A DNA stretch of 31,086 nucleotides, from NCBI GenBank assembly GCA_041308205.1, contig JBFZCA010000003.1:1-31086 (forward strand). Reading direction: 5' to 3'. This stretch comes from Planctomycetota bacterium. Lineage in GTDB: Bacteria > Planctomycetota > UBA8108 > UBA8890 > UBA8898. This document shows, piece by piece, positions 5,483-31,086 of this stretch; within the stretch, counting starts at the first letter, position 1, and every line of letters starts with the position of its first letter. A program made the translations under genes and the position numbers. Below the pieces are notes generated by a model. That model searched no databases. It was not told the DNA's origin and worked only from the letters and a program-made list of their open reading frames with translations.

Positions 5483-5586
5483 TTGCGCGGTTTCCGGCGG
5501 CGGTCCGATGGAGAGCGCCGTTCGTCGCGTCATCAACATGCGCCTCAAGGGACCCGGCATCGCGCACCGCGCGCCCGGTCGCGGCG

Positions 5587-7107: not shown

Positions 7108-7128
7108 TCATTACAAGGATGTAATTGA
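7108..7128. promoter_or_regulatory. Operator-like dyad TCATTACA-AGGA-TGTAATTGA; second TGTAATTGA copy at 7043-7051
   Basis: TTACA-N4-TGTAA palindrome and a repeated 9-mer in an AT-rich patch of the divergent intergenic region. Confidence 0.4.
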
Positions 7129-7149
7129 CTTGATGCCGGCCCTCCGCTG

Positions 7150-7164
7150 TGGCACCATGGTTGT
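7150..7164 (+). promoter_or_regulatory. Possible sigma-54 -24/-12 promoter for the hdr operon
   Basis: TGGCAC-CATGG-TTGT has correct spacing but GT instead of GC at -13/-12. Confidence 0.4.
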
Positions 7165-7178
7165 GAAAAGAATCACGA
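7161..7178. promoter_or_regulatory. Rex- or CRP-type operator
   Basis: TTGTGAAAAGAATCACGA has 2 mismatches to Rex TTGTGAA-N4-TTCACAA and 1 mismatch to CRP TGTGA-N6-TCACA. Confidence 0.55.
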
Positions 7179-7290
7179 ATCAAGGCGGCAGGCGATGGCC
7201 CGCCGCCTAAGGGCGCGGACGCGTGGGGTTGGCGCCGTTGTCGGAGACAGTGGAGCTGCTGAAGCGAATTCGAATGCGGGAGGAATGCCC

Positions 7291-7863: not shown

Positions 7864-7980
7864 TCAACTGCGAAGGAGACAAACACCGCACGGAGAGAAT
7901 CGCCGGGAAGAGAAAAGAACGAAAACCACGCGAACGACAACAACCAGGCCAATCCGCGTACTTCGCGAAGGAGGAACGGC

Positions 7981-8868: not shown

Positions 8869-8884
8869 GAAGAGGAGGAGCACG

Positions 8885-9760: not shown

Positions 9761-10220
9761 ACCGGCGGTCGATCTCGCTCCCGCCGAGGGACTCATCAAC
9801 GCGTACGTTGAAAGCCGGGAGGCGACGATCGCGCTCCTGCAGGACGTCCAGAAGCTCTACGGCTATCTGCCGCGCCCGGTGCTCGATCTCATCGCGCGGC
9901 GTCTGGACCTGCCCCGCACGCAGCTCTACGGCCTGGCGACGTTCTACAAGGCGTTCAGCCTCGTGCCGCGGGGGCGGCACTGCATCACCGTGTGCACGGG
10001 GACAACCTGCCACGTGAAGGGCGCGCCGCACTTGCTCGCCACGCTGGAGAGGGAACTGGGATGCCGGTGCGGGGAGACGACCAAGGACGGCCGCTTCACG
10101 CTCGAGCGCGTGAACTGCGTGGGCGCCTGCGCGCGCGCCCCGATCGTCGTCATCGACGAGAAGCCGCACGGGCGGCTCTCGCCGGCGAAGGTCATCAAAA
10201 CCATCGAGCGTTACGAGTGA
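9738..10220 (+). CDS. NuoE/HydC/HoxE-like [2Fe-2S] subunit
   Basis: LLQDVQKLYGYLP, ATFY, VCTGTTCHVKGA, NCVGACARAP. GAGGAGG RBS lies inside the 3' end of hdrA-N. Confidence 0.9.
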   Translation: MATRTAREPAVDLAPAEGLINAYVESREATIALLQDVQKLYGYLPRPVLDLIARRLDLPRTQLYGLATFYKAFSLVPRGRHCITVCTGTTCHVKGAPHLLATLERELGCRCGETTKDGRFTLERVNCVGACARAPIVVIDEKPHGRLSPAKVIKTIERYE

Positions 10221-10237
10221 GACGGGAGTTCGCGCAG

Positions 10238-12268: not shown

Positions 12269-12272
12269 TGCG

Positions 12273-14027: not shown

Positions 14028-14479
14028 GCCAGGACTTCGAACCGGTGATCGTCGGCTTCCTCTGCAACTGGTGCAGCTACACGGGCGCCGACCTGGCGGG
14101 CACATCGCGGAGCCGCTACCCGCCGAACCTGCGGATCATCCGCGTGATGTGCAGCGGCCGCGTGGAGCCGGCGTTCGTGCTCAAGGCGTTGCGGGAAGGC
14201 GCCGACGGCGTGCTCGTCGCCGGCTGCCACCCGGGCGACTGCCACTACCAGGAAGGCAACTACAAGACGATGCGCAGGATGGCGCTGCTCGGGCCGCTCC
14301 TCGATCAGTTCGGCATCGAGCGCGCGCGCGTGCGCCTGGAGTGGATCAGCGCGAGCGAGGCCGGCCGGTTCGTCGAGGTCGTGAAGGAGATGACGAGCCG
14401 CATCAAGGCGCTCGGGCCGCTGCGGCTCGGGCATGCGCAGGATGCCGAACCGATCGCGGAGAAGCTGGCGCCCGCGTGA
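14024..14479 (+). CDS. mvhD: MvhD/FlpD-type [2Fe-2S] adaptor subunit
   Basis: [41 protein letters not shown] overlap with the upstream gene. Confidence 0.93.
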
Positions 14480-14496
14480 GGGGGGAGGACAGTGCC

Positions 14497-15474
14497 GTGG
14501 GCAAACCCAAAGTCGCGTTCTACTGGTGTGCGAGCTGCGGCGGCTGCGAGGAGGCCGTGGTCGACCTTGCCGAGGGCATCCTCGAGGTCGTCGGCGCGGT
14601 CGACATCGTGCTGTGGCCGGTCGCGCTCGACTTCAAGCTCAAAGATGTCCACGCGCTCCCGGACGGCGCGATCGCCGCGAGCTTCATCAACGGATCGGTG
14701 CGCACCTCGGAGCAGAAGGAGTGGGTCGAGCTCCTGCGCCGGAAATCCGGCCTCGTCGTCGCGTTCGGGTCCTGCGCCCACATCGGGGGCGTGCCGGGCC
14801 TTGCCAATCTGTACGATCGCGCCGGCATCTTCGAGCGCGCCTACGACCTGGTGCCGACGGCAGACAACCCGGGCCGCGTGCACCCCCAGACCTCGACGAA
14901 GGTCGCCGAGGGCGAGCTCAGGCTTCCGGAGTTCTTCAACACGGTCAGGACGCTCGACCAGGTGATACCGGTCGACTACTACCTGCCGGGCTGCGCGCCG
15001 CCCCCGGATCTCATCTTGAACGCCGTGCAGGCGATTCTCGCCGGCACGCTGCCGCCGAAGGGCAGCGTGCTCGCGCCGGCCAAGGCGCTGTGCGACACCT
15101 GCCCGCTCAAGGAGTCCAAGCCCGAGAAGATGGCCATCAAGGAATTCAAGCGCATCGCGACGAGCGCGCCCGATCCCGCGGTCTGCTACCTGGCCCAGGG
15201 CTACGTGTGCCTGGGCCCGGCGACGCGGTCGGGGTGCGGAGAACGCTGCATCAAGGCCAACATGCCGTGCCGGGGGTGCTTCGGCCCGACGCCCGAAGCG
15301 ACCGACCTGGGCGCGAAGGCGCTGGGGGCGCTGGCATCGATGGTCGACACGAAGGACCCGGACGAAGCGGCGCGGATCATGGCGATGCTGCCCGACCCCG
15401 CGGGAGCCCTGTACATGTACGCGCTTCCCAGCTCCCTTTTGCAGCGCAAGAAGATGGAGGCGGCGCATGGCTAA
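14497..15474 (+). CDS. mvhG: Group 3c-type [NiFe]-hydrogenase small subunit
   Basis: WCASCGGC, AFGSCA, LPGCAPP, LCDTC, CLGPATRSGC, CRGCFGP. GGAGGA RBS before GTG 14497. Confidence 0.9.
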   Translation: MGKPKVAFYWCASCGGCEEAVVDLAEGILEVVGAVDIVLWPVALDFKLKDVHALPDGAIAASFINGSVRTSEQKEWVELLRRKSGLVVAFGSCAHIGGVPGLANLYDRAGIFERAYDLVPTADNPGRVHPQTSTKVAEGELRLPEFFNTVRTLDQVIPVDYYLPGCAPPPDLILNAVQAILAGTLPPKGSVLAPAKALCDTCPLKESKPEKMAIKEFKRIATSAPDPAVCYLAQGYVCLGPATRSGCGERCIKANMPCRGCFGPTPEATDLGAKALGALASMVDTKDPDEAARIMAMLPDPAGALYMYALPSSLLQRKKMEAAHG

Positions 15475-16927
15475 GCGCATCACGATCGATCCCGTCACGC
15501 GCCTCGAGGGCCACGGCAAGATCGAGATCTTCCTGGACGATGCCGGCAACGTGGCGAACGCCTACCTGCAGATCCCCGAGCTGCGGGGCTTCGAGAAGTT
15601 CGCGGAGGGGCGCCTCGTCGAGGACATGCCGCGCATCACGCCCAAGATCTGCGGCGTGTGCCCGACCGCCCACCATATGGCCTCGGGGAAGACCGTGGAC
15701 GCGGTGTACCACGTCGATCCGCCGCCCGCGGCGAAGAAGATCCGCGAGCTCATCAACTCGGCGTTCGCGGTCGAGGACCACACGCTGCACTTCTACTTCC
15801 TCGGCGGGCCCGATTTCGTCGTGGGGCCCGAGGCGCCGGCCGCCGAGCGGAACATCCTCGGCGTCATAGGCAAGGTCGGCGTCGAGGCCGCGACGAGGGT
15901 GATCGGCATTCGCCGCCGCCTGCGCGCGATCATCACGGCGCTCGGCGGCCGCGTCATTCACCCCGTGTGCAACGTCCCGGGGGGCGTGTCCAAGGGCGTC
16001 ACGAAGGAGATGCGCGAGGAGTTCATCGCGGCGGCCGAGGATGCGGTCGAGTTCGCGAAGTTCACGCTGGGGGTGTTCGGCAAGATCGTCCTCGCGAACA
16101 AGAGCTACGTCGACCTCGTCGTCGGCGACATCTACCTTCACCGCACGTACTACATGGGGCTCGTCGATGCGCAAAATCGCCTGAATCTGTACGACGGCAT
16201 GATCAGGGTCGTCACGCCGTCCGGCAAGGAATTCGCGAAGTTCCCGCCGAGCGAGTACGTCGAGCACATCGCCGAGCACGTCGAGCCCTGGAGCTACATC
16301 AAGTTTCCGTACCTCAAGAAGGTGGGGTGGAAGGGCTTCACGGACGGCGAGACGAGCGGCGTTTACCGGGTTGCGCCGCTCGCCAGGCTCAACGCCGCCG
16401 AGGGCATGGCGACGCCGGCCGCCCAGGAGGAGTACGAGCGCATGTACGCGACGCTCGGCGGGAAGCCCGCCCACAATACGCTCGCCTACCACTGGGCGCG
16501 CCTCGTCGAGCTCCTCTACGCCGCGGAGCGCCTGCGCGAGCTGGCGCGGGACGAGGAGATCCTCGATCCGCACATCCGCACGCTGCCGACCGCGACGCCG
16601 ACCGAGGGCGTGGGCGTCGTCGAGGCCCCGCGCGGGACCCTGTACCACCACTACAAGACCGACGAGCGCGGGGTCGTCACGGAGGCCAACCTCATCGTCG
16701 CGACCGTCAACAACTCGGCTGCGATCTCGATGTCGATCGCGCGCGCGGCCAGGAAGCTCATCACAAACGGCGAGGTCCGGGACGGCCTTCTCAACATGGT
16801 CGAGATGGCCTTCAGGGCCTACGACCCCTGCTTCGCGTGCGCGACGCACGCGGCGGGGCAGACGCCGCTCATCGTGACGGTGCGGGACGCGCGCGGCGCG
16901 CCCCTCCGGGTCCTCCGCAGGGACTGA
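15467..16927 (+). CDS. mvhA: Group 3c-type [NiFe]-hydrogenase large subunit
   Basis: TRLEGHG, L1 KICGVCPTAH, EAPRGTLYHHY, L2 RAYDPCFACATH followed by a 25-aa C-terminal extension. Adjacent to mvhDG and hdr genes. Confidence 0.93.
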   Translation: MAKRITIDPVTRLEGHGKIEIFLDDAGNVANAYLQIPELRGFEKFAEGRLVEDMPRITPKICGVCPTAHHMASGKTVDAVYHVDPPPAAKKIRELINSAFAVEDHTLHFYFLGGPDFVVGPEAPAAERNILGVIGKVGVEAATRVIGIRRRLRAIITALGGRVIHPVCNVPGGVSKGVTKEMREEFIAAAEDAVEFAKFTLGVFGKIVLANKSYVDLVVGDIYLHRTYYMGLVDAQNRLNLYDGMIRVVTPSGKEFAKFPPSEYVEHIAEHVEPWSYIKFPYLKKVGWKGFTDGETSGVYRVAPLARLNAAEGMATPAAQEEYERMYATLGGKPAHNTLAYHWARLVELLYAAERLRELARDEEILDPHIRTLPTATPTEGVGVVEAPRGTLYHHYKTDERGVVTEANLIVATVNNSAAISMSIARAARKLITNGEVRDGLLNMVEMAFRAYDPCFACATHAAGQTPLIVTVRDARGAPLRVLRRD

Positions 16928-16991
16928 GCGCGGCGCGCCGCCTCAGCAGCCGGGAAGCCGATCCTTCGTGAACTCGAATCCCGCCTCGGGG
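16884..16991. repeat. 108-bp direct repeat, left copy
   Basis: 107/108 identical to 23654-23761; the single difference is 16909 G vs 23679 C. Confidence 0.97.
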
Positions 16992-17104
16992 CAGGGGGGC
17001 CGGTATGCTCACGCGGCCCCGCGCCACACGCGCGCCCGCACACACGCCGCGCGGGATGTGCACGGGCTCGCGCGCGGCGCTTCGAGAGCTCCCGCGCCTC
17101 TCGT

Positions 17105-17133
17105 TTGACAGCCGGAATGCTCGCGATTAGGAT
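17105..17133 (+). promoter_or_regulatory. Sigma-70 promoter for the giant gene
   Basis: TTGACA (17105-17110), 17-nt spacer, TAGGAT (17128-17133). Confidence 0.6.
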
Positions 17134-17280
17134 CGTGGATGACAAGGACGCGAACGAGATTCCCTGCCCGCAGAAGGCGCGCCGCTCAGGCCTGATTCAC
17201 GCAGGCAGCGCGCGATTCCCTGCGACTTTCGCCTCGGCTGTCCATGCGGGCAGGACGCGCCAGGCAAGGAGGGCTTCCCG

Positions 17281-20200
17281 ATGCGCATCTTCCCCTCGCC
17301 AGCACCGTTCCTTCTCTTCGTGCTTCTGGCACTCATCACGGCGTTGCAGGCTTGGGGGGCCGAACCTCAAAGCCGTTCCGTCGCCGAGTGGGCGGCGGAG
17401 TTGCGGGCGCCGAATCCGAAAGTCCGCTCGAATGCGGCGACGGCGATAGGGCGCATGGGGCCTGCCGCGGCGCAGGCGGTCCCCGACCTGGCCGCTGCCC
17501 TCGGTGACGCCGATACGGAGGTCCAGGCGAATGCCGCGTGGGCGCTGGCGCAGATGGGCAAGGAGGCCAAGTCCGCGGTTCCCGCCCTGGAGAAGGCTCT
17601 GGGAGACGCCAACTGGCAGGTGCGGGGCCGGGCGGCGGTGGCGCTCGGAGCGCTGGGAACGGAAGCCGGCGCCGCTCGAGAGGCGCTCCGGCGAGCGCTC
17701 AATGACGGCAATGCAAACGTTCGGGCTGCCGCGGCCGGCGCGCTCTGGTCGGTCACCGGCGACGCGACCGAGCCGCTTCCCGCCCTGAAAGGGCTGCTCT
17801 CGAATCCGGACGCGCATACTCGCAGACAGGCCGCTCAGGCGCTCGCCAGAGTGGGCCCGCCTGCCGCCGTTCTCGCGCCCCAGTTGATTGCCAAGCTGGA
17901 CGACTCCGACTCCGGCGTTCGCCTGGCCGCTGCCAGGGCGCTGATGCCGGTCGGCCGGGAGAACGCGGCCGTGCGGGACGCGCTCGAGAAGCGCTTGGCC
18001 GTGGAGAGGGAACCGGTGGTGCGCGAGGCGATGGCCTCGACGCTCGATCAGCTTCGGAAGGAGCCGGCCTCCGGGCCGGCGGGGCGGCACGCGGAACCGC
18101 GCGAGGCGACGGGCGTCGGCCCCGCCGCCGGAAAAGAAGAGGCCGCCGGCGCTCCTGAGCCTGCCGCCGCGACGGCCGGCGCACCTGCGGAGCCAACCGC
18201 GAAGGCCGGGCAGCCCTCCGGCGGCGGCGCGCCGGGCGCCGAGCCCGCCGGCGCAAGCCCGCCTCGATCGGCCGATGCCGAAGGCGGGGCGGAGGCGCGT
18301 CCTGCGGCAAAGGCGCCCGCGGCTCCACGACAGCGACCGCCCGAGCCGGCGTACGAAGGCAGAACCCTCACCGAGTGGATTGTCCGGCTGGACGGCAAGG
18401 ATGTCGGCGAGCGTCGCTTGGCGTGCGTGGCGCTGGGGGAGATCGGCCCTCCGGCCCGGCCGGCCGTCGGACCGCTCAACCGATTGCGCCTCTATGATAC
18501 GCACGACATGGTGCGGCACCAGGCCGCCTATGCCCTGGCGAGGATACTCGGCGTGGCGTTGGGAGACATGCTGCCCAGACCGCCTGCGCCGGCCAAAGGC
18601 GCCGGCGAGAGCGCGGGACCTCCCCCGGAAGGCCGGATCTTCTACCTGTTCGGAGTGCACTCCGTCTCGGAGAAGGGGGTGGAACCGCGCCCCGATCTGA
18701 CGCGCAGAGACACCACCTACAGGCAGTTCCTGTTCGGCTTCACCAACGGGGCGCTCAACTACCTCGATCTTGCGGAAGCCCACAAGTACCGGGAGGACGC
18801 GCGCACGCGCGGCCTGAACGTCGCTCTACCGCTTCCCGAACTGCTCAAGTCGGAGCCGGAGGCGGAGCGGGACCGGATTCGCAAGGAGTACACGTTCTTC
18901 TACAAGTACAAGAAGGATTATATCGTCCGCATCACCTGCAACCGGCAGACCCGTTACGCCTACTACCGCTGGATCGGAGACGAGTACGACTCGTACGGGA
19001 GCGGATCGCACTGGGCCATGACGCCGGGCAGGTATGTCGCCGAGATCACGGTCTGGGTGCGCGACGGTTTCCGCCTGGACTACGAGGCTCCCTTCACCTG
19101 CACGTCCGACGTCTACACCGCCGGCGGAGATCACCTGCAGGCGGCCAAGGCTCACGGCCCGCAGGATCTCGCCGGGGAAGAGCGTGAATACGAGGCCTCC
19201 ATCACGCCGGGAAACACCGACTACAGCCGCCGGATGTTCCCGGGAAGGAAAGCAGGAGCGACCAAGAGGATCGGCGAGAGGATCGCCGGATTGCTCTCGA
19301 AGCTCGCCAATTGCCAGCCGATGATGCCCGACGAGATCTTGCCGTACATCCGCGAATCGCTTGTCTTCTACGACAAGGCCGCGCGCATCGACCCCGCGGC
19401 GCACAAAACCAGGGCCGGTGACCTGAGCATGCTCGTCGATGTGTGCGCCATGGCGGCCTCGCGCGATACGTACGCCATGGCCATCCGGCTCATCGGCATG
19501 CTGGAGAAGGTGATGGCCGACCCGGAGTCGAAGAGCTCCCAGGCGGAGCTGCGAAACGCCCACCATGATCGGGCGGTCTGTTACATGAAACTCGCGGATC
19601 TGGCGTTGACCTATCAGATGGACATTCCCGCCTCCCTCCGGTTCCGGATCGAGGCGTTGCGATACAAGGAGCTGGCCGACGGGACCTTCGGCGACGTGCT
19701 GCGCTCGATGGATGTCGAGAAGAAGATGACCGAGTGGCCGCAGCCGGACTGGTGGAATCCGGCCTGGGACGAGCGGCAGCCGCCGGTCCCCGCGGAGCTG
19801 ACCGAGGAAGGGGAGGGCAAGGGGGAAGAGGCGGCTGAACCGCGGGAGAACGCGGAGCAGGAAGTTGCGGTTGTGAACGCGCAAGAGCTCGAGGAAGCCG
19901 TCGCCGAGGTGGACGAGGAGCGCGCCGAACAGGTGTCGTGGCTCATTCAATTGCGGGGGCAGATGACCAGCGCCAACGCGGAGCTGGGCGCGGCTCTCGC
20001 CAAGCTGGTCGCTCTCCACCGCGCGCTGCTCGCGGTCGAGCAGAAGATGAGCTACTTCGGGAAGCTGCTGGGCGAGGCCTCGGCGCGTCCCGACGATGCA
20101 GACTGGTTCGAGGAGCAGATCTTCAACGCCATCAGGAACAGCGAGGCGATCCGGGACGATCTGGCGGGGCAGGCGCGCGGCGGCGCGGAGGCGATGCGGG

Positions 20201-23200
20201 CGGTCCTGAAGAAGATCGTGGACGATCTGTCGAAACGGCAGGCCGAGCTCGAGGGGGAACGCACCGCGATCATTCAGGACGCGATGCTGAACTACGCGAG
20301 CATCGCCCAATCGCTGGAGAAGCGAGGCCCGCAGTGCTCGGAGCCCGCGATGCGGGAGGTCGCGGAGAACACGCTGCACAGCGTGCGCACGATCATGGCG
20401 CTGCGCAAGGCGGAGCTCTACACGGCGGCCGGCATGGGCGACGAGTTCCGGGTGGCGGCGCGCGAATGCATCGAGGCGGGCGGCGAAGCCTTCGACTATC
20501 AGGTCCGCCTCATGGAATCGGCGCACATGGAGTCGCAGGGGAAGCTGAGCCTGGCCCTGAAAGCGGCCAGGCTCGCGCTGGACGCGCGAAAGGAATCCGC
20601 CGAACCGCCCCGCAAGAAGCTCGCGGATGGAACGGAAGTGCGCGTGCCGACGCCGGCGCAGGCGCTCGTCAAGCGGCTGGAGCTGGACGCGCTGGAGGCG
20701 ATCACGGCCAAGACCGCCCGGGACTCGACCATGGTCCGCAAGATGTGCGAGCAGCAGATCGGCGTGCACGGCGATCGCGGGGTCACGGGGTTCGCCTACG
20801 ACGTGCTCTTCATGGGGCGGTTCATCAGCGCCGTGGGCGACAACAATCTCGTCGACTCCTTCCACAGTTGGATCACCGGCCCGGCGGGGCGGCCTTTCTG
20901 GGGCACTCCGATCGAGAAGGAGGAGACGCTGGCCGGCAAGCCGGAAAGCCAGTCGCGCGAGATGGGCTTCGTTCTGGACGACGCCACGCGCACCACGTTG
21001 GGATTGAACATGATCCGCAAGCTGCGCGAGCACGATGTCCCGTTCTCGAAGATCGGAAGCATGAGCGCGGCGGAGTTCCGCCGCGTGGTGGCAGAGACCC
21101 TGGGCCGGGAGCCGCTGGGAGAACGGTGGAAGAGTCTGACGGACGCGCAGGTTTCCACGATGCGTTCGGAGCTCCATTTCGCAATGCAGCAAGCCGACGT
21201 GGAGCGGTTGATGGAGGGCAAGTCCCAGGTCCTCGATCTGGAAAGCGGCAAGAGCTACTACGATACCGAATCGTTCACCGGCAACTGGCGCGACGCCGTG
21301 GAGGACCAGGTGAACGTCGCCAACCTGCTCCTGTTTGCGCTGCCCAACGCCCAGGTGGCGCGGGCGGGCCGTCAGGTGGGCCTGCTCAAGTGGGCCGGCC
21401 CTGCGGCGGGGGGAGGCGAGTCCGTCGCGCTCAAGCAGGCCTTCTCCGAGGCCATCGGCGTGGGTCGCGGCCTGAAGTGGATCAGCGAGCACAAGCTCGG
21501 GGGCCGGATCGTGGCCGATCTGGTGGACACCCACTCCCGCATGTCATGGTTCGGCCAGGCCATGACGGATTCCATGATCCAGAGCGACGTGACGCAGATG
21601 GCGAGATACGGAACCGAATATGTGGTGGGCCGGCTCGGGTACGACGAGGTGACGCAGGAGAAGGCGGGACGCGTGGCGGAGGTTCTGACCCAGATCGGCA
21701 CATCGTTCGCAGGGGACTTGGACGTCACGGTCGGAATCGCCCGGGACGTCCTCAATCCTGCGCAGGCCCGCGTCATCGGGGAGTCCCTCGCCGGAGCGCT
21801 CAAGAGCGCCGACGAAATGGCGGAGATCGCGGAGTCGCACCAGCGCATCCTGCGGAAAGCGCTGGCGGAAACGGACGGCGGGCGGATCACGCCCGAGAAT
21901 CAACGCCTGGTGAAGGCCGCGGCCGAAGGGCTCGAGGAGCAGATGGACTCGCTGCGCAAGGCTCTGCCCGAGGCCGGCAGCGCGCACCCCATCGTCAACG
22001 AGCACTATGACCGGCTTCAGGCGCTCTTCGATGGGCTTCAGGGCGCGGCGGACGGAATGGCGTCGGATGCGAAGCGGTTCAGCGCCTTTGCGGAGGATCT
22101 GGCCGAGAGACTCGCCGAGAGTCGGACCTCGCTCGTCAGGCAGATCAGCGTCGTTCAAGGAGCGGGCAAGCCCCTGGCCACGAAGCAGGACCTGGCCGGG
22201 AGGCCCCTCTTCAACGACGATGTGGACTTCCGCACGCCGTCCGCCCTGCCCATCGCGGACGAGCTTGCGCAGAAGGGGCAGTACACGCAGGCCTCCAAGC
22301 TCTATGAGGCCGGGTACTACGTGTACGACGAGCTGGGGATGTCGAACAACCCGGCGGCGCAGATTCTGGCGAAACGATGGCGCCTCGCAAAGCAACTGGA
22401 CCAGGCGCAGGACTTCTTCGCCCGGATGAGAGCCAATCCCGATCCGAACCTCGCCATGGCGCGGCCGATCAGCGAGGCGGAGCTCGAGAACATGCGGAAG
22501 TCGCCGGATTTCCGGCTTGTGCCCATCGGCAAGGGGGCCTCGACTCCCTACTGGGTGGAGATCGCGGGCACGCGCGCCGGCGTCTTCAAACCGGCGCGCG
22601 CGGACTTCCCGTTCGGGCGGGAGGCCGAGAGGATTGGCGCGAACTTCGCGAAGGAGCTCGACATTCCCGCGGCCGCCGCCGCCCGAACGACCATGCCTCT
22701 GGAGCAGGACATGCAGGGCGCATTCGCGAGATACTTCGAGGCGGCTGAAGCGCAGGGCCTGGAATGGCGCAGGACCGTGGACGACCTGTTGCAGCTCAAG
22801 TCGAAGGGGAAGCTGGAATTCGTACCCGTGGGCGCCGAAGCGCCCGACACTTTCTGGGCGGTGTCGGAGGGCAGGCGCGTCGGCCTCTTCACGCCGGAAT
22901 ACGCCCGGTTGCCGCAGGGCACGAGCGCCCAGGATCTGTTCGAGCGCATCGCCAAGGCGAGCGGGGGTGAAGTCCTCGAGACGGTGCCGACGACAATGCG
23001 CATGAAGGAGGCGGACGGCGTCTTCGTGCGGTTCATCGAGGGGCAGGACCTCATCAATTTCACGGACGCGGAGCGGATCGTGCTGAAGCGCGAGGTCGCC
23101 AAGGACTGGGTGTTGAGACTGCTCATCGGCGACTATGACGCGCATGCGCTCAATTTCAAAGTGGCGCCGAACGCAGAGGTCATCCCGCTGGATCGCAACC

Positions 23201-23652
23201 TGGCCGACATTCTGGAGATACGCGAAGGGATGCTGCAAAGGGTCCTGGGCACGTCGGCCCTTTCGACCAACCCACCGGAGATGCAGATCGAGATCGAGAA
23301 GCTGATGCGCGCCCGGTTGCAGATCCTGTGCGGCCGGGTGGGCGGGAACAACCGCCACTATCAATGCATGGGCCGCATCGCGGAGCAGATGACGTACGAG
23401 GATTTCAAGGGTGCGGTGGAGAAGGTGCAGAAATGGGATCGTGATTTCCTGCGGAAACAGGTGGGTGACGCCATGGGCGGTGATACCGAGCGGGCGCTGG
23501 ACGTCCTGGAAGCGAGAGTGCGTTGCATGAAGAAGGTGCTGGAAGCGCTTCCGGAGGTCATGACGGAACCGGTGACGTCGTTCCTGCCCCGCTGCATCAG
23601 ATGGCCGGTGGCGTTGCGGTCGCCGGAGGAGGTGCGCCTGCTGGCGGCATAG
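17281..23652 (+). CDS. 2123-aa secreted protein: signal peptide, HEAT repeats, Pro/Ala linker, helical/coiled-coil core, C-terminal PI3/PI4K- or HipA-like kinase domain
   Basis: Hydrophobic signal ending in ALQAWG; VRxxAAxALG HEAT units; GVFKP (K1770), RE/AE, LLIGDYDAHALNF (D1953, H1955, N1958) and IPLDRNLA (D1971). Confidence 0.8.
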   Translation: MRIFPSPAPFLLFVLLALITALQAWGAEPQSRSVAEWAAELRAPNPKVRSNAATAIGRMGPAAAQAVPDLAAALGDADTEVQANAAWALAQMGKEAKSAVPALEKALGDANWQVRGRAAVALGALGTEAGAAREALRRALNDGNANVRAAAAGALWSVTGDATEPLPALKGLLSNPDAHTRRQAAQALARVGPPAAVLAPQLIAKLDDSDSGVRLAAARALMPVGRENAAVRDALEKRLAVEREPVVREAMASTLDQLRKEPASGPAGRHAEPREATGVGPAAGKEEAAGAPEPAAATAGAPAEPTAKAGQPSGGGAPGAEPAGASPPRSADAEGGAEARPAAKAPAAPRQRPPEPAYEGRTLTEWIVRLDGKDVGERRLACVALGEIGPPARPAVGPLNRLRLYDTHDMVRHQAAYALARILGVALGDMLPRPPAPAKGAGESAGPPPEGRIFYLFGVHSVSEKGVEPRPDLTRRDTTYRQFLFGFTNGALNYLDLAEAHKYREDARTRGLNVALPLPELLKSEPEAERDRIRKEYTFFYKYKKDYIVRITCNRQTRYAYYRWIGDEYDSYGSGSHWAMTPGRYVAEITVWVRDGFRLDYEAPFTCTSDVYTAGGDHLQAAKAHGPQDLAGEEREYEASITPGNTDYSRRMFPGRKAGATKRIGERIAGLLSKLANCQPMMPDEILPYIRESLVFYDKAARIDPAAHKTRAGDLSMLVDVCAMAASRDTYAMAIRLIGMLEKVMADPESKSSQAELRNAHHDRAVCYMKLADLALTYQMDIPASLRFRIEALRYKELADGTFGDVLRSMDVEKKMTEWPQPDWWNPAWDERQPPVPAELTEEGEGKGEEAAEPRENAEQEVAVVNAQELEEAVAEVDEERAEQVSWLIQLRGQMTSANAELGAALAKLVALHRALLAVEQKMSYFGKLLGEASARPDDADWFEEQIFNAIRNSEAIRDDLAGQARGGAEAMRAVLKKIVDDLSKRQAELEGERTAIIQDAMLNYASIAQSLEKRGPQCSEPAMREVAENTLHSVRTIMALRKAELYTAAGMGDEFRVAARECIEAGGEAFDYQVRLMESAHMESQGKLSLALKAARLALDARKESAEPPRKKLADGTEVRVPTPAQALVKRLELDALEAITAKTARDSTMVRKMCEQQIGVHGDRGVTGFAYDVLFMGRFISAVGDNNLVDSFHSWITGPAGRPFWGTPIEKEETLAGKPESQSREMGFVLDDATRTTLGLNMIRKLREHDVPFSKIGSMSAAEFRRVVAETLGREPLGERWKSLTDAQVSTMRSELHFAMQQADVERLMEGKSQVLDLESGKSYYDTESFTGNWRDAVEDQVNVANLLLFALPNAQVARAGRQVGLLKWAGPAAGGGESVALKQAFSEAIGVGRGLKWISEHKLGGRIVADLVDTHSRMSWFGQAMTDSMIQSDVTQMARYGTEYVVGRLGYDEVTQEKAGRVAEVLTQIGTSFAGDLDVTVGIARDVLNPAQARVIGESLAGALKSADEMAEIAESHQRILRKALAETDGGRITPENQRLVKAAAEGLEEQMDSLRKALPEAGSAHPIVNEHYDRLQALFDGLQGAADGMASDAKRFSAFAEDLAERLAESRTSLVRQISVVQGAGKPLATKQDLAGRPLFNDDVDFRTPSALPIADELAQKGQYTQASKLYEAGYYVYDELGMSNNPAAQILAKRWRLAKQLDQAQDFFARMRANPDPNLAMARPISEAELENMRKSPDFRLVPIGKGASTPYWVEIAGTRAGVFKPARADFPFGREAERIGANFAKELDIPAAAAARTTMPLEQDMQGAFARYFEAAEAQGLEWRRTVDDLLQLKSKGKLEFVPVGAEAPDTFWAVSEGRRVGLFTPEYARLPQGTSAQDLFERIAKASGGEVLETVPTTMRMKEADGVFVRFIEGQDLINFTDAERIVLKREVAKDWVLRLLIGDYDAHALNFKVAPNAEVIPLDRNLADILEIREGMLQRVLGTSALSTNPPEMQIEIEKLMRARLQILCGRVGGNNRHYQCMGRIAEQMTYEDFKGAVEKVQKWDRDFLRKQVGDAMGGDTERALDVLEARVRCMKKVLEALPEVMTEPVTSFLPRCIRWPVALRSPEEVRLLAA

Positions 23653-23653
23653 G

Positions 23654-23761
23654 GGGACGCGCGCGGCGCGCCCCTCCGCGTCCTCCGCAGGGACTGAGCG
23701 CGGCGCGCCGCCTCAGCAGCCGGGAAGCCGATCCTTCGTGAACTCGAATCCCGCCTCGGGG
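23654..23761. repeat. 108-bp direct repeat, right copy
   Basis: Contains an orphan copy of the last 14 mvhA codons and the true 3' end of the ELWxxDGT gene. Confidence 0.97.
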
Positions 23762-26700
23762 TGCGGAGGCCGCGGGGGAGGCCCGTTGACGAAGAGGAAG
23801 CTCAGGAGCCAGATCGGATCGGCGATGTCCACGGCGCCGTCGTCGTTGACGTCGAGCGCGTCGGCGCAGGCGGCCGTTGTGGTCTGGCCGGCGAACAGGT
23901 GGTTCAGGATGCTGATCGGATCGGCGATGTCGATCGCGCCGTCCTCGTTCACGTTGCCGCGCACGAACACGCTTTCGCTGTCCGGCAGCGGCACCGCCCA
24001 GAGGCGCGGCGGGCCGCCGGCGCTCTCGCTCACCCAGTAGTAGAGGAGGTCGCCGACCATGATCGGCTCGGAGCGGGGCTTGTTCATGAACTCGCAGAAG
24101 CTCGAGGCCACGGCGGGATCGGTGTCGTGGGCGACGTACATGCCGCCGCGCGTCCGCGAGCTCTGGAAAAGCCCGAGCGGCTTGGTCAGGAACGCGCGCC
24201 TTTCGGCCCCGAAAAGATCCGGAGCCCCGTAGCCGCTCGCAGGCGGCGCATACACGAGGCTCTCCGTATCCTCCGCCGCGCCGTCCGCCATCCAGACGTC
24301 GCCCTGGATTCCGGAGGCGCCGTCCGTGCTCACGAAGTAGAAGCGGCCGCCGCCGAGGACTCCCCGCATCACCGACTTGGCGCTCACGCGCATCGTGCCT
24401 TCCGCCGTGCCGTCCGTGACCCAGGGATGGATGCCGACCTCGAAGAAGCAGCGCCCTTCCGCGGCGCCGTAGAGACGGGGCCCGAGCTGGAACACGCCGA
24501 GATCGCGCACGAAGCGCGCGCCTCCGCACGTTCCGTCGAGACTCCAGAGCGCGTCGCCGTCGATCCCGGCGCGCTCGCCGATGCACAGCAGGCGGTCGTT
24601 CAGCACGACGAACGGCTTGGGGCAGGACGCCAGCTCCTCGAGACCGTCGCTGCAGACGCGGCGGGTTCCATCGACGGTGCCATCCGTCTGCCACAGGCAG
24701 CCGGAGGGGGACGCATCTCCGACGCCCGCCCAGAAGAAGAGGAGATCCCCGAGCCGCACCCACACCTGCGGCCAGGAGGAATCCGCGCCCTCCGCCAGGT
24801 CGAGGAACAGACGCGTGCCCTCGACCGTGCCGTCGGTCACCCACAGCTCCGTGCCGTGAACGCCGTCGTTGCCCGAGAAGTAGAAGCGGCCGTTCAGTTC
24901 CATGCCGTGCCACAGGGAGACGAACGGCGTCGCCGGCGTGAAGGTCCGTAGGAGCCGCGTTCCCGCGGCCGTGCCATCGGTGATCCAGAGCTCGTTGCGC
25001 GCCGATGCGATGTCGGGGAGGAAGAGCTCGAGGTCGCCAAGCGTGCCGAAGCGCGTGATCGCCGCGCTGCCCGGCGCCGCGGGTCTGTCCGCGAGAAGCG
25101 CGGCGTCCCCGTCCGTCCCGTCGCTCGCCCACAGCTCCTCGCCGTGCTCGCCGTCGTCGGCGCTGAAGAGCACTCGCGTCCCGCACGGTCGCAACGCGGC
25201 GGGCATCGAGCCCTCGGCGCCCGGGCGGATGTCCGCGCAGAGGCGCGTGCCGGTCGCCGTGCCGTCGGTCACGTACGGCTCGCTTCCGGTTTCGTCCGCG
25301 TACGCGCGGAAGAAGAGCCGTCCGTCGGGCGCCGCGCACCATTCGGGGTTCTCGACCGGCGTGGCGTCGAGATCCGCGAGGATCGCCGTCCCCTCCGCGG
25401 TGCCGTCGCTCGTCCACGGCTCGCTGCCGTGGACGCCGTCGTCGGCCCACACGACGACGCCGTTGCGCCCCTCGCGAAAGTCCCGCGCGGACGATCCTCC
25501 CGACCCGGGGCGTACGTCGCGGACGAGCCGCGTTCCCGCCGCCGTGCCATCGGTCGTCCACGGCTCGGCGCCGTGTGCCGCATCCTCCGCGACGAAGACC
25601 AGAAAGCCCGGCGCTCCGAACGACGCGCAGGTCGTCCCCGGGCGTGTCGAGAAGAGCGCGAGATCGGCGATCATGCGAAGCCCCGCGGGAGTCCCATCGG
25701 TCGCCCACAGCTCCGTTCTGTCCGGGACGGCTCGAACGGCAAGGACGAGCTCGCCGGCCAGCGTGCCCAGGACGCAGGGAGAGGAGCCCTCGCCGCCCGC
25801 GCGGAAATCGCGCAGAAGGAACGTCTGCTCGGGCGTGCCATCGGTCGCCCACGGCTCGCGCCCGCTCGCGCCGTCATCGGCGAAAAACACGGCGCTCGCG
25901 CCGGCGGTTGCGAAATCGGCGGGCATGGAGCCGTATGTGCCGGGCTTGACATCGGCGAGCATCACCGTGCCCTCGGGCGTGCCGTCGCTCACCCAGGGCT
26001 CCAGGCCGTGTGTCGCGTCCCAGCCGTTGAAAACCAGCCGATCCCCGACCGCGGCATGCTCGCGCATCACGGCGGTGCACGGGGAGGTGTCGGACGGCGT
26101 GGGCAGGAACTCCCGCACGAGACGCGTGCCGTCGGCCGTGCCGTCGGTCACCCAGAGGCCGATGCCGGCGCAGAAGGGCGCGACCGCCCCGGGCACGAAG
26201 AGCATGCGTCCCGGGGCCGCGATCGCCGCGCGCTCCTCGTCGATCGCCGTGATGTCGTCGCGCAGGCGGCGCGTGCCCTCGGGCGTGCCGTCGGTCGCCC
26301 ACAGCCCTCCGGCCACGAACACGACCCGGTCGCCGAGATCGAACATGGGGCCGAACGGCGAGCCCACCGCGGCCAGCATGCGCGTGCCGTCCGGCGAGCC
26401 ATCGCTCGACCACAGCTCCCGTGTGCCGTCGGCGGCCTGGCTGAAGAAGAACAGGCGTCCCGGCGCGGCGAGGAGCGGAGAGGAGTACACGCCTTCCTTG
26501 AGCGTGACGGCGCCTTCCTCGGTCCAGTCCGTGAGGAGGAGGTCGCCGAAGTCGGTCACGACCGCCGTGCGGTCACCGAACGGCACGGCCGCCGCGGGAT
26601 ACGAGACGGGGTACAACTGGAGCTCCCTCGTGCCGCCGGCCGTGCCATCGGTGAGGAAGAACCTGCCCGAAGCGGCCAGGAACACGTCGCCCGCGGTTGT

Positions 26701-26877
26701 CGTCACGGCCAGGGAGAGGTTCGATGACCCGGTGTTCCCCTCGAGGACATCGCTTACCTGGTAGGGAGTCGCGGCGCCGGCGAGGGCTCCGGCGGCCAGG
26801 AGAGCACACACGCGCGCGCAGGCGATCCCGCGTGTCCGGACCCGATTGCTGCGAGTGGCTTGGCAATGGTCTTGCAT
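23713..26877 (-). CDS. ELWxxDGT-repeat secreted protein with C-terminal dockerin-type-I-like domain
   Basis: About 17 (E)(L/P)WxxDGTxxGT repeats. Tail VRGNVNEDGAIDIADP...DVNDDGAVDIADP. Start chosen at ATG 26877 (GGAGG 5 nt upstream); ATG 26889 is an alternative. Confidence 0.88.
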   Translation of the reverse strand: MQDHCQATRSNRVRTRGIACARVCALLAAGALAGAATPYQVSDVLEGNTGSSNLSLAVTTTAGDVFLAASGRFFLTDGTAGGTRELQLYPVSYPAAAVPFGDRTAVVTDFGDLLLTDWTEEGAVTLKEGVYSSPLLAAPGRLFFFSQAADGTRELWSSDGSPDGTRMLAAVGSPFGPMFDLGDRVVFVAGGLWATDGTPEGTRRLRDDITAIDEERAAIAAPGRMLFVPGAVAPFCAGIGLWVTDGTADGTRLVREFLPTPSDTSPCTAVMREHAAVGDRLVFNGWDATHGLEPWVSDGTPEGTVMLADVKPGTYGSMPADFATAGASAVFFADDGASGREPWATDGTPEQTFLLRDFRAGGEGSSPCVLGTLAGELVLAVRAVPDRTELWATDGTPAGLRMIADLALFSTRPGTTCASFGAPGFLVFVAEDAAHGAEPWTTDGTAAGTRLVRDVRPGSGGSSARDFREGRNGVVVWADDGVHGSEPWTSDGTAEGTAILADLDATPVENPEWCAAPDGRLFFRAYADETGSEPYVTDGTATGTRLCADIRPGAEGSMPAALRPCGTRVLFSADDGEHGEELWASDGTDGDAALLADRPAAPGSAAITRFGTLGDLELFLPDIASARNELWITDGTAAGTRLLRTFTPATPFVSLWHGMELNGRFYFSGNDGVHGTELWVTDGTVEGTRLFLDLAEGADSSWPQVWVRLGDLLFFWAGVGDASPSGCLWQTDGTVDGTRRVCSDGLEELASCPKPFVVLNDRLLCIGERAGIDGDALWSLDGTCGGARFVRDLGVFQLGPRLYGAAEGRCFFEVGIHPWVTDGTAEGTMRVSAKSVMRGVLGGGRFYFVSTDGASGIQGDVWMADGAAEDTESLVYAPPASGYGAPDLFGAERRAFLTKPLGLFQSSRTRGGMYVAHDTDPAVASSFCEFMNKPRSEPIMVGDLLYYWVSESAGGPPRLWAVPLPDSESVFVRGNVNEDGAIDIADPISILNHLFAGQTTTAACADALDVNDDGAVDIADPIWLLSFLFVNGPPPRPPHPEAGFEFTKDRLPGC

Positions 26878-27073
26878 CAGCGCCTCCATTCCTGATCGAC
26901 CGGCTCGATACGTTCCATTGTAGGCGGGGCGTGAATGAAAGACAAGCAAGAAACTGCGGGCGCACGCGCCGGCGCCGCGCGGAGCCGCCGCCGCGGACGG
27001 CGCTTTCTCGAGGGTTCCGCTGCCGCTATACTGAAAGGCGAGGTTGCCCGTCCCCGGCGGAAAGGCATGCACG

Positions 27074-28525
27074 ATGGTTGCGTTCGTTCTCGCTCTCGGC
27101 ACGCTCGTCCTGGGCGGCGAGGCGCCGCGCATCGATCTCGCCGACTGGCCCGTCCGGATCGGCGGCGAGGCGCAGCTCTTCGCCGACGACTTTCTCGTCG
27201 CCCGCGGCGAGCGCATCGAGTACGCGCTCCACCGGCCCGAGAAGCATCCCGCGAATCCGCTCGTGACGCCCGCGCCGTCCGTGGAGCGGCTCGTCCTTGC
27301 CTATGGCTCGGTCATCCGGGAGAAGGAGGGCGGCCCGTTCCGTCTCTGGTACACGAACGACACGGGCATCGCCTACGCGGAGAGCGCCGATGGAGTGCGC
27401 TGGGAGAAGCCCGCCGTGGGAATCGCACGCGACGGCCGGCCGACGAACATCCTGACGCGCGGGCATCGCGGCCGCTCCGACACCCTGACCGTGTTCCTGA
27501 ACCCGGATGCGTCCGACATCGAGCGGAAGTACCTCGCGTACGTCTTCGAGTACCGCTTCCCCGACCGCGACGGCGTGCGCGAGGAGCGGCGCGAGGGGCT
27601 CTACCTGCGCGCGTCGCCCGACGGGATCGCGTGGCGCGAGCGGCCGGAGCCGGTCATGTACAGCATGTGGCGGAACCCCGCCGACCGGCCCGCGGGGACC
27701 GAGGGCGACCTGGGCGATGTCCACCACGTGAGCTGGGATCCCAAGCTCGGGAAGTTCATGGGGCACGTCAAGCTCTCGCTCGGCGGCGTCCGGAAGCGCG
27801 GCCTGACCGAGAGCGACGACGGGATCCACTGGTCGCACCCGCGCCTCATCCTCGAGGCGGACGAGCGCGACCGACCCGGCGACCAGACGTACTCGATGAT
27901 CGCGTTCCCGTACGAGAGCGTGTGGCTCGCCTACGTCGGCCTGTATCACAAGGGGACCGATGACCGGATGGACATCCAGCTCGCCGTGAGCCGCGACGGG
28001 CGGAACTGGTCGCGGCCGCTGCGCGGCGCGTTCCTCGCCAACGGGCCGGCCGGCGCCTTCGACTGGGGCGTTCTCCACATGGCGGCCAATCCTCCCATTC
28101 GCGTCGGAGATGCGCTGTGGATCTACTACGGGGGCTACGACACCGTGCACGGGACGAAGCTTCCCGACGTGCGGCAGTTCGGCATCGGGCTCTCGATGCT
28201 CAGGCCGGACGGCTTCGTGTCCGTGGACGCGCGGGGGACGCCGGGATCGCTCGTGACGCGGCCGCTCTGCTTCGAGGGCGGGAAGCTCGCCGTGAACGCA
28301 TCGATCGGCGCGGGCGGGTCGCTCGCGGTCGCCGTGCTCGACCGCTCCTACCGCCCCCTCGAAGGCTACCGGCGCGAAGACTGCGCGCCGCTCTCGGGCG
28401 ACGGGCTCGGGCTGCCCGTGCGCTGGAAGACAACGAACACGCTCCCGCCCGCCGGCGAGGAGCGCCACGTGCGCCTCCAGTTCTTCCTGGCCGACGCGTC
28501 GCTCTACTCCTTCCGCATCGAGTGA
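27074..28525 (+). CDS. Secreted five-bladed beta-propeller glycoside-hydrolase-like protein (GH32/GH43 clan-like)
   Basis: Signal peptide, LFADDF, KHPANP, FRLWY, AESADGVRWEKP, SDDGIHWS, QLAVSRDGRNW, LRPDGFVS. The family call is pattern-based. Confidence 0.55.
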   Translation: MVAFVLALGTLVLGGEAPRIDLADWPVRIGGEAQLFADDFLVARGERIEYALHRPEKHPANPLVTPAPSVERLVLAYGSVIREKEGGPFRLWYTNDTGIAYAESADGVRWEKPAVGIARDGRPTNILTRGHRGRSDTLTVFLNPDASDIERKYLAYVFEYRFPDRDGVREERREGLYLRASPDGIAWRERPEPVMYSMWRNPADRPAGTEGDLGDVHHVSWDPKLGKFMGHVKLSLGGVRKRGLTESDDGIHWSHPRLILEADERDRPGDQTYSMIAFPYESVWLAYVGLYHKGTDDRMDIQLAVSRDGRNWSRPLRGAFLANGPAGAFDWGVLHMAANPPIRVGDALWIYYGGYDTVHGTKLPDVRQFGIGLSMLRPDGFVSVDARGTPGSLVTRPLCFEGGKLAVNASIGAGGSLAVAVLDRSYRPLEGYRREDCAPLSGDGLGLPVRWKTTNTLPPAGEERHVRLQFFLADASLYSFRIE

Positions 28526-29002: not shown

Positions 29003-29366
29003 GTACCTGCGGCATGTGCTCGATGAGGCAGATTACCTGTGCCGAGAGGCGACGTGCTTGACCAGGGCGCAGTTCCTTGCCGACGACAGGGCCAAGCGTG
29101 CGTTCGTGCGGAGTCTCGAGATCATCGGCGAGGCGGTGAAGAAGGTTCCCCAGGACCTGCGGTCTCGATACCCGGAGATTGCCTGGCGCGCCATGGCGGG
29201 GATGCGCGACAAGGTGATCCACGACTACTTCGGAGTCGACTGCGAAATCGTCTGGGACGCTGCCGCAACAAAGGTGCCCGTGCTGCAGAAACAGATCCGG
29301 ACGCTTTTGGCTCGAGAGGAACCGCCGGCCCTCAGAGGCTCCAGCCCCGGCGGTATTCCCACCTGA
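28983..29366 (+). CDS. hepT: HEPN (DUF86) RNase toxin
   Basis: [32 protein letters not shown] (R-x4-H). Overlaps mntA. Confidence 0.9.
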
Positions 29367-30675
29367 CCCAGCGCTGCGCCTCCGGGTTGTTCGTGACCTT
29401 CAGGTTCTCCGGGTCCCAGGCGATGCGGCCGTCGGCGCGCTGGGCGACGTTGCCCAGGCAGCAGGTCTCCGTGACCGGGCCGGAGATGTCGAAGTTGGAG
29501 CACGCGGGCGGGCCGCCCTTGCAGGCGCGGACCCAGTCCATCTCGTGGCAGTCGGGCACGCGCGGCAGGGTCTTGGGCGGCGGCGCGAACTCCTTCATGC
29601 GCGCCTCGGGGAGCAGCCGCGCGCCGTTGCCGTAGACGCCGCAGGTGAGCATGCCGTTGGAACCCTTGAAGGTGACGCCGCCCTCGGACTCGCCGACCGC
29701 GGCCGCGTCATCGATGCCCTCGGGAAGCGGCGCGCGCATGCCCTCGTACCAGTTGAGCGTCACGGGCGGGAGGCTGCCGCGCGCGGGGAACCGGTAGGTG
29801 ACGATGGCCGAGAGCGGGTGCACCTCCTCCGAATTGCCGCACGTCGCGGCCTCGACCGTCGCCGGCGCGCCGAGCTTGAGCGCCGCGAACACCGGACCGA
29901 GGGTGTGCGCGCCGCGGTCGCCCATCATCCCCGAGCCGAAATCCCACCAGCAGCGCCAGACGCGCGGGTGATAGGCCGAGTGATACGGCCGCATCTTCGC
30001 CGGGCCGATCCACACGTCCCATTCGAGGCCCGGCGGCGGCGCGGGCGTCTCGGCCGGCCGGACGCCGACGGGCGCGCTCCAGCTCGCGTGGCCCCACGGG
30101 TAATACGTGAGGCTGCACCAGGCGTCGACCTCGGTGACCTCGCCGATGGCGCCGCTCCAGATCCACTCGCAGACGAGGCGGTGGGCCTCGCTCGACATGC
30201 CCTGGTTCCCGGTCTGCGTGGCGACCTTGGCCTCGCGGGCCGCGAGCGTCAGCGCCCGCGCCTCGTACACATCATGCGTGAGCGGCTTCTGGCAGTAGAC
30301 GTGCTTGCCCGCGCGCATGGCCGCCATCGAGATGACCGCGTGCGTGTGATCCGGCGTCGCGATGACGACCGCCTCGATGTCCTTCTGCCGCTCGAGCATG
30401 ACGCGGTAGTCCTTGTACGTCGCGGCGGCGGGATAGCGCTTGAACGTCCCCGCAGCGTACTCGAAGTCGACATCGCAGAGCGCGACGATGTTCTGCGACG
30501 CCACGCCGGCGAGGTTGGCGGCCCCCATGCCGCCGACCCCGATGCCGGCGATGCAGAGCTTGTCGGACGGGGCCGCGACCGTGCCGCCGAGCACGTGGCG
30601 CGGCACGATGGTGAGGGCGGACGCCGCGGCGGCCGCGCCGATGAACTTTCGCCGAGAGAACGCGCGTGCTGACAT
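29332..30675 (-). CDS. Gfo/Idh/MocA-family oxidoreductase with Tat signal
   Basis: [42 protein letters not shown]. Confidence 0.9.
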
Positions 30676-30840
30676 GCGAAGCTCCTTTCCTCGAGGCTCC
30701 CGCGGGCGCGGCCCGCCGCGCGCGGAGGCCTCGCGTGCGTGCCTTCATGCAGGATGCTATCCGAGGACGCGCGGGCGATCAACACGCGCGAGGGCGCTCC
30801 CTTCTTCAACACGGCGCCGATCTCGGGTACCATCGAGAGC

Positions 30841-30996
30841 ATGTCGCTCCAACGAACCGCATTCGTGCTGCTGCTCTGGGCGGCCTCGGCCGCCGCCGCC
30901 GAGGAACGCGCGGCCGCCGCCCTCGGGGCGGCCGAGGGCGGCGCGCGGTACGTGAGCGACATTGCCGATCGCGTCGCGCTTGCATGCGAGCAGGGC
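30841..30996 (+). pseudogene. 5' part of a secreted NPCBM/NEW2-domain protein, interrupted at 30994-30997
   Basis: Signal peptide MSLQRTAFVLLLWAASAAAA, then RYVSDIADRVALACEQG, which fits the NPCBM start xYLSDL...QGWG. Confidence 0.6.
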
Positions 30997-31086
30997 CGGG
31001 CGCGTGGTGCCCGAGGCCCTTGGCGTACTGCATGTCCCCCAGCCTGAGCGGCGTGGCCGGCCGGCCGTCGGGCGGCTTCACGGCCG
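30995..31086 (-). pseudogene. Next segment of the NPCBM domain, in inverted orientation
   Basis: Minus strand reads (T)AVKPPDGRPATPLRLGDMQYAKGLGHHAPG, which fits the NPCBM core PLxLxGxxYxKGLGxHAxS. Confidence 0.65.

Follow-up and report, generated by a model that had tools for sequence, protein, structure and literature searches.

Does the gene at the end of this contig carry a short inversion in the genome of its organism, or does its last piece owe its orientation to the way in which the DNA was prepared and read? The stretch analyzed here, referred to as the window, is the complete sequence of a 31,086-nt contig, and the feature under study is its terminal 93 nt, which encode part of a gene on the strand opposite to that of the part preceding it. 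An earlier note, made from the sequence alone, had proposed that a segment inside an NPCBM-domain gene was flipped, switching the gene off, and had offered a phase-variable intragenic inverton, a one-off lesion, and an assembly chimera as possible origins. From a comparison of the locus with its relatives, with public sequencing runs, and with documented inversions and artifacts, we conclude, with a probability of roughly 0.68, that the head-on junction reflects a strand-switch chimera at the level of the reads, one that arose in vitro while the library was prepared or amplified, and not a rearrangement of the genome.

Two opposing reading frames meet at the 3' end of the contig

On the plus strand, an open reading frame begins with the ATG at 30841 and reads MSLQRTAFVLLLWAASAAAAEERAAAALGAAEGGARYVSDIADRVALACEQG as far as 30996, beyond which it continues as junk (RARGARGPWRTACPPA) to its stop codon (Table 1). 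The part of this frame that precedes the junction, termed U, comprises a signal-peptide-like N terminus followed by the first NPCBM residues (...RYVSDIADRVALACEQ). The minus strand, read from 31086 to 30995, encodes AVKPPDGRPATPLRLGDMQYAKGLGHHAPG and then also runs into junk (PARMQ...), and the two opposing frames meet at the tetranucleotide GGCC at 30994–30997. Our re-reading of the sequence agreed with the coordinates and translations that the earlier note had given for both frames. When a hand-made composite of the N terminus was used in a homology search, the sole match was the window's own 102-aa protein, and exact-protein look-ups found no record of the neighboring oxidoreductase, of the 68-aa ORF, or of the 102-aa called protein.

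Table 1. Features at the 3' end of the window
Feature	Coordinates	Strand	Remarks
U, true 5' part of the NPCBM/HZS_alpha gene	30841..30993	+	Collinear with orthologs
Junction with microhomology GGCCGGG	30994..31000	.	Only GGC (30994–30996) exactly common to both breakpoints
S', 93 of the 118 nt that natively follow U, as reverse complement	30994..31086	-	Encodes AVKPPDGRPATPLRLGDMQYAKGLGHHAPG
Truncated 68-aa ORF as assembled	30841..31047	+	Junk after the Gly at 30994–30996; ends with TGA at 31045–31047
Perfect 12-nt palindrome, (GGCC)x3	31055..31066	.	Within the flipped piece, in a GC-rich stretch; away from the breakpoints
Gfo/Idh/MocA oxidoreductase neighbor (Pfam)	29332..30675	-	Synteny anchor for the orthology of the relatives' loci

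The gene is uninterrupted in related loci

A degenerate DNA pattern for the peptide YAKGLGHHAPG retrieved 13 loci, three of which are syntenic orthologs (L002, from the Planctomycetes MAG contig MWEK01000004.1, together with L009 and L013) with 85% identity across the oxidoreductase gene, the 5' part of the NPCBM gene, and the region between the two. Also compared were an ENA MEGAHIT contig (L014), which has 96.4% nucleotide identity to the window in the shared genes, an NCBI MAG (L015), and a Logan contig (L016). The oxidoreductase gene is collinear with L002 (85%) and L014 (96.4%), and the same gene order is found in L014, L015, and L016. U is collinear with the three syntenic orthologs at 85 to 90% nucleotide identity and, from 30911 on, with L014, L015, and L016 at 95%.

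Against L002, L009, and L013, the window aligns in the forward direction over 29331–30995 and in the reverse direction over 30994–31084. The same switch appears in all six related loci: the stretch of U from 30911 to 30993 matches on the gene strand with 90 to 95% identity, 30994–31086 matches on the opposite strand with 87 to 92% identity (E values from 1e-27 to 1e-35), and a gap of 25 nt separates the two matches in every case. The opposite-strand match is far beyond chance. In the same six loci, as well as in a contig from the sister sample X2 described below, the gene runs without interruption (...ACEQGWGSLGLDTAVKPPDG...HAPGRITIECGGKY), and the protein of the L002 ortholog is likewise continuous (...YVSDIAERVALACEQGWGSLGLDTAVKPPDGRPAAPLRLGEKEYAKGLGHHAPGRIAIRCNGKY...).

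The flipped segment measures 118 bp, extending from 30994 to about 31111 in window terms, and its remaining 25 nt would fall past the end of the contig. The flipped geometry proposed in the earlier note therefore stands against the six relatives and X2, and its size of roughly 110 bp is to be corrected to 118 bp. When filled in from L014, the missing 25 nt would encode WGSLGLDT, and the 93 nt flipped back and joined to these 25 nt give one open frame, EGGARYVSDIADRVALACEQGWGSLGLDTAVKPPDGRPATPLRLGDMQYAKGLGHHAPGRITIECGGKY. The in silico flip suggested as a check thus restores a continuous NPCBM reading frame. It had also been predicted that the reverse complement of a WGxLGx(D/N)-like stretch would lie past the window end and that the gene would then resume on the plus strand; the native gene does contain such a stretch, WGSLGLD, and the resumption was never observed.

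The Pfam profiles give a consistent picture. The flipped composite matches NPCBM positions 4 to 58 with 31.8 bits against a cut-off of 23.9, the minus-strand piece alone reaches profile positions 29 to 47 weakly (E = 0.0086), the ORF as assembled has no Pfam match, and the L002 ortholog protein scores 105 bits (E = 3.7e-30). With matches that lie 25 nt apart in the relatives and a composite that passes as NPCBM in Pfam, the two frames are consecutive parts of one NPCBM domain, as the earlier note had recognized. The underlying gene, for which the Pfam gathering score is exceeded, encodes an NPCBM/NEW2 domain protein (PF08305). A protein search with the L002 ortholog returned more than 400 homologs of ≈1100 aa that combine PF08305 with PF18582 (HZS_alpha), one cluster of which includes the much closer relatives L014, L015, and L016. 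The real gene encodes an intact, exported NPCBM and HZS_alpha protein of ≈1100 aa with C-terminal CxxCH motifs, and it is an ordinary member of a large, exported NPCBM-HZS_alpha family present in Planctomycetota and Hydrogenedentes.

The breakpoints share a short inverted microhomology

The native left side reads GGCTGGG (Gly-Trp-Gly), and the native segment ends on the right with CCCGGCC. In the L014 sequence, which reads GAGCAGGGCTGGGG at the junction site, the left breakpoint is GAGCAG/GGCTGGGG, where the slash marks the break; the same native sequence would apply to the window's species because the X2 contig has exactly one mismatch within 30994–31000. The native right breakpoint is ...GCGCCCGGCC/GCATC. 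The inverted sequence common to the two breakpoints is therefore GGC when counted exactly, or 6 of 7 nt (GGC[T/C]GGG). In the contig, 0.4% of positions have a 6/7 match at the two ends of a 118-nt segment, which makes this one better than 99.6% of random positions, and the microhomology is probably meaningful for how the join formed.

As a sequence, this microhomology looks nothing like a recombinase site. The 80-nt flanks contain no inverted repeat longer than 6 nt, none at the breakpoints, and nothing beyond chance, and the breakpoint match is not conserved, with L002 reading GGATGGG versus GGCCGGG (5/7). The hairpin potential of the native DNA is no better than that of shuffled sequence (z = 0.55), and Pfam found no recombinase domain among the 17 main ORFs of the 31-kb contig. 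The earlier note had attributed the flip to GC microhomology; the short homology is indeed there at the breakpoints, as GGC or 6 of 7 nt, but an inversion in the genome is not borne out, its reciprocal junction never having been seen.

The junction occurs in one sequencing run beside a native junction

The locus is present in four soil-metagenome runs of one study (X1 to X4), which we examined as Logan contigs. Logan assembles with k = 31, drops singleton k-mers, clips tips, and simplifies the graph with Minia3 in a SPAdes-like manner (PMC12424806). The junction support reported for X1 derives from contigs and not from read counts, and is a lower bound of at least two observations per 31-mer. 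X1 matches the window without mismatch over kilobase contigs at ≈10 to 12x, which evidently makes it the source sample. Of all the runs in the Logan index, only X1 contains the sampled junction-spanning 31-mers.

Two contigs of X1 reach the junction. The first, of 516 nt (mean depth 6.6), covers 30528 to 31023, crosses the junction, and is identical to the window; because this k = 31 assembly is independent, the junction exists in the reads and is not an assembler error. The second, of 2629 nt (10.6x), ends with the same 30 nt (30994–31023), here preceded by the reverse complement of ...HAPG-RITIECGGKY, that is, by the native junction between the segment and the downstream sequence (S/D). This contig follows L002 collinearly from 6161 past 8000 and differs from L014 at no fewer than 9 sites in 200 nt, so it represents the window strain's own downstream gene. 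An assignment to an L014-type strain was rejected on the same differences, that type not being seen in the adjacent gene in X1. The full depth at which X1 shows the native S/D junction of the window strain excludes a fixed inversion, leaving a mixed population or a chimeric molecule as the options.

The 25 missing nt (x) and the inner part of the segment are absent, in either orientation, from the X1 contigs, and the native junction U/x is unobserved there. The reciprocal right junction of an inversion (x'/D) is found in no contig of any run. In X2, a 171-nt contig consists of 30930–31000, a further 18 nt, and the reverse complement of 31086..31005; it aligns collinearly to L002 over 6012–6179 and shows the native U-x-S order in the same species as the window. 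The flipped piece differs from this native copy by a single mismatch in 82 nt. Along 20 kb covered by X1 contigs, there are no other opposite-strand joints, a result that is uninformative because interior chimeras get pruned.

Over 30995–31054, a second homolog, ≈90% identical (6 mismatches in 60 nt), occurs in X2, X3, and X4, at up to 10.7x in X3. It continues as ...HAPG-EIAIDCAGKF, exactly as the protein P0004 does, which means that these soils also contain a related species with this gene.

The junction lies at the edge of a coverage hole

Toward the contig end, the depth in X1 falls from 10.4x, within the general range of about 10 to 12x, to 8.1x, then to 6.6x, and finally below 2, the two-observation threshold. 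The native sequence around the junction has 78.7% GC, which places it at the 99th percentile of the contig's 150-nt windows, and the GC fraction of 30994–31086 is 0.80. A second coverage hole in X1 lies at 30485–30527. Beside it, abutting 30528, the 516-nt contig starts with 20 nt of Illumina adapter (TACACGACGCTCTTCCGATC); adapters were therefore untrimmed before that Logan assembly, and joins that are not genomic do persist at the edges of holes in these data. The two X1 contigs end at the same position, exactly 31023, a shared stop that, given the Logan method, is best explained by clipping of a short common dead-end unitig spanning 30994 to ≈31086.

Other features of the contig and its relatives

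Several further observations concern the surroundings of the gene. Next to the oxidoreductase, a nucleotidyltransferase gene (PF01909, 28640–29002) overlaps a gene for a HepT-like RNase (PF01934, 28983–29366), forming an MNT/HEPN-type toxin-antitoxin module that adjoins the oxidoreductase in L014, L015, and L016 too. These three loci also carry an insert of ≈1.35 kb between the oxidoreductase and the NPCBM gene (window 30789–30910 versus L014 4688–6040), which includes an Unstab_antitox gene and two small ORFs. The N terminus of the NPCBM protein reads MNVSIRAIVLSVVPAAALGAAEGG... in L014, L015, and L016 versus MSLQRTAFVLLLWAAS... in the window and L002, and the 5' end of the gene has therefore been replaced in one lineage. 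In L015, the orthologous NPCBM/HZS_alpha gene (5013–8349; GCA_003452155.1, DMJR01000117.1) is called as two pieces, one of 311 aa without a Pfam match and the other a 782-aa "partial" protein (HAK94363.1), a split that would fit a frameshift or an assembly error within it.

Farther from the 3' end, a strain-variable island of ≈10.6 kb occupies 16934–27536 of the window, where L014 has 1228–2353. It includes a 2123-aa HEAT-repeat protein (17281–23652), a 1167-aa protein encoded on the minus strand (23713–27216) with a weak, sub-threshold dockerin match, and a 493-aa protein (27044–28525) with only a faint BNR-like match; between the same flanks, nothing but DUF6922 and AbiEii genes is found in L014, a strain with 96% identity. 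A gene cluster at 7195–16927 encodes a soluble NiFe hydrogenase together with a NuoF-like diaphorase. It contains Fer4 and CCG-domain proteins, a Complex1_51K/NADH_4Fe-4S fusion (9992–12268), a 2Fe-2S/4Fe-4S subunit (12234–14027), and an NiFeSe_Hases large subunit (15467–16927) that is annotated as HoxH-like in L014.

Discussion

The geometry of the junction, its occurrence in a single run, the missing repeats, the native junction alongside, and the coverage hole are direct observations, and from them we infer an origin in vitro and a step of pairing and fill-in. A DNA end, either ...CAGGGC (from U) or ...CCCGGCC (the end of the 118-bp segment), would pair with the other site on the opposite strand, 118 nt away, through 3 to 7 nt of complementarity, and would then be filled in. 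The resulting molecule would read U and then the downstream segment backwards. Assemblers usually prune junctions of this kind as tips of low coverage. In this sample, however, the native path is missing, since the next 25 nt fall in the coverage hole, among the GC-richest parts of the contig; the chimeric path would thus have been the only available extension, and the contig dead-ends 93 nt later. Nowhere but at a dead end would an assembler retain a path of this sort. Because two sightings of a 31-mer suffice for Logan to keep it, one duplicated or mate-overlapped molecule would be enough. A chimera explains with one event the opposite strands, the confinement to one run, the lack of a reciprocal junction, and the dead end.

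Molecules of this kind are well documented. Chimeras with inverted arms from the same locus, joined at short complementarity, are described both as library artifacts (PMC10908179) and as amplification artifacts (PMC1855051). PDSM and IVS artifacts occur in libraries prepared by sonication and by enzymatic fragmentation, the IVS type at near-perfect inverted repeats of 8 bp or more (PMC10908179), and over 85% of MDA chimeras are inverted, with priming at 2 to 21 nt (Lasken & Stockwell 2007; PMC1855051). As in strand-switch chimeras, the second arm at our locus is the reverse complement from the same locus, 118 nt away, and as in MDA chimeras, the join lies at a few complementary bases, here 3 to 7 nt versus the reported 2 to 21 nt. 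The locus also resembles library and amplification chimeras in being confined to one library, in lacking a reciprocal junction, and in having the native form in the same DNA (S/D at 10.6x in X1). It departs from IVS artifacts in that the complementarity is only 6/7 nt where those have near-perfect inverted repeats of at least 8 bp.

Some observations count against a chimera. Each junction 31-mer occurs in X1 two or more times, and the native U/x junction is absent from the X1 contigs despite a depth of ≈11x, an absence that would also fit a mostly inverted subpopulation. The 20 kb covered by X1 contigs gave no direct sign of an especially chimera-prone library, and the 6/7 microhomology fits template switching in vivo as well as in vitro.

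These points bear on the strongest alternative, a genuine one-off inversion of the 118 bp, mediated by microhomology or by template switching during replication, present in part of the S1 population and knocking out the NPCBM/HZS_alpha gene; such an event would involve no dedicated enzyme and would not be reversible by design. Template-switch inversions at quasi-palindromes or microhomology are rare mutations that arise in vivo from replication slippage and need no recombinase. The locus is like them in that a few bases of inverted microhomology, of a quality found at 0.4% of random positions, flank a short inversion, and unlike those at quasi-palindromes in that the native DNA here lacks unusual hairpin potential. 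The repeated junction 31-mers, the native U/x path missing from the X1 contigs, and a flipped piece that is the gene's own segment, with 1 mismatch to the native copy in X2, would all be expected of such an inversion. We nevertheless consider it unlikely. The native S/D junction of the same strain stands at full depth in X1, the reciprocal junction was never seen, and the flipped junction is confined to one run. The inversion would have had to fall by chance within 93 nt of a coverage hole and the contig end, precisely where alone an artifact is retained, and a loss-of-function variant would have had to reach an appreciable frequency with its second junction unseen, in a gene that is conserved and intact in all relatives. 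A rare template-switch variant needs drift or selection to reach a detectable share of an environmental population.

Much less probable still is a programmed, phase-variable intragenic inverton, in which a site-specific invertase would reversibly flip the segment and thereby turn the exported protein off and on. Invertons within genes are real and can bring premature stops; they are described by Chanin et al. in "Intragenic DNA inversions expand bacterial coding capacity" and detected with PhaseFinder or PhaVa (PMC10028968). They are bounded by flanking inverted repeats (11 nt in thiC), are attributed to invertases, and have been verified in both orientations in one population (PMC10028968). 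The segment in the window shares with them a short reversal wholly inside coding sequence that produces a premature stop, its size of 118 bp falls within the reported range (which includes a 57-bp case; PMC10028968), and the native and flipped left junctions do occur in two samples of one study. Unlike them, it lacks a repeat, an invertase in the contig, and a second junction, and it does not recur. The site has no flanking inverted repeats and is not conserved in the orthologs (5/7 in L002), and no recombinase is found among the contig's genes. The flipped form does not recur across runs or relatives, being seen in 1 run, with six loci and X2 native; in the contigs, X1 combines the flipped left with the native right junction, X2 shows the left junction in its native form, and a flipped right junction appears nowhere.

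A minus-strand piece derived from a convergent NPCBM paralog or from another strain, through a larger rearrangement or an inter-strain chimera, is hardly credible. A ≈90% homolog over 30995–31054 is present in X2, X3, and X4, and the 96%-identical strain type L014 exists elsewhere, but the piece matches the native U-x-S contig of X2 with 1 mismatch in 82 nt and the orthologous segment of all relatives with 87 to 92% identity, in line with the flanks; the L014 type is absent from X1 in the neighboring gene, and the ≈90% homolog has 6 mismatches and another continuation (EIAIDCAGKF). A pure assembler (graph) error, a strand switch at a repeat without any junction read, would suit the contig-end position and the 12-nt palindrome nearby, but it is essentially refuted by the exact junction in the 516-nt contig of the independent k = 31 Logan assembly of X1, with every junction 31-mer present in the reads at least twice (PMC12424806) and a junction homology of 3 to 7 nt, far below any k.

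Of the three origins put forward in the earlier note, the chimera thus fits best, at the level of the reads and not as an error of the assembler. The biological flip that was thought to switch the gene off, possibly in a phase-variable manner, is not supported, given the lack of repeats, the lack of a recombinase in the contig, the confinement to one run, the native S/D junction in X1, the unseen reciprocal junction, and the position at a dead-end terminus in a coverage hole. The biological reading is weak, and the feature is most likely not a real genomic one.

With a strand-switch chimera as the preferred reading, the locus carries a caution: when the last ≈100 nt of a metagenomic contig with low coverage hold a piece of the right gene in reverse, a single chimeric molecule can be the source. 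The consequence is a falsely truncated gene call, and the 68/102-aa "protein" sits in public protein collections. A feature of this kind should be scored as an inverton only with both junctions and read-level support.

A real flip is, on the whole, rather unlikely. It would be a recombinase-independent, microhomology-bounded 118-bp inversion that segregates in soil Planctomycetota and inactivates a conserved exported NPCBM-HZS_alpha-cytochrome protein or, less likely, a reversible inverton with minimal repeats. If true, it would represent an intragenic inversion without recognizable inverted repeats, in a phylum in which phase variation is little studied, and scans for invertons that rely on repeats would miss such events.
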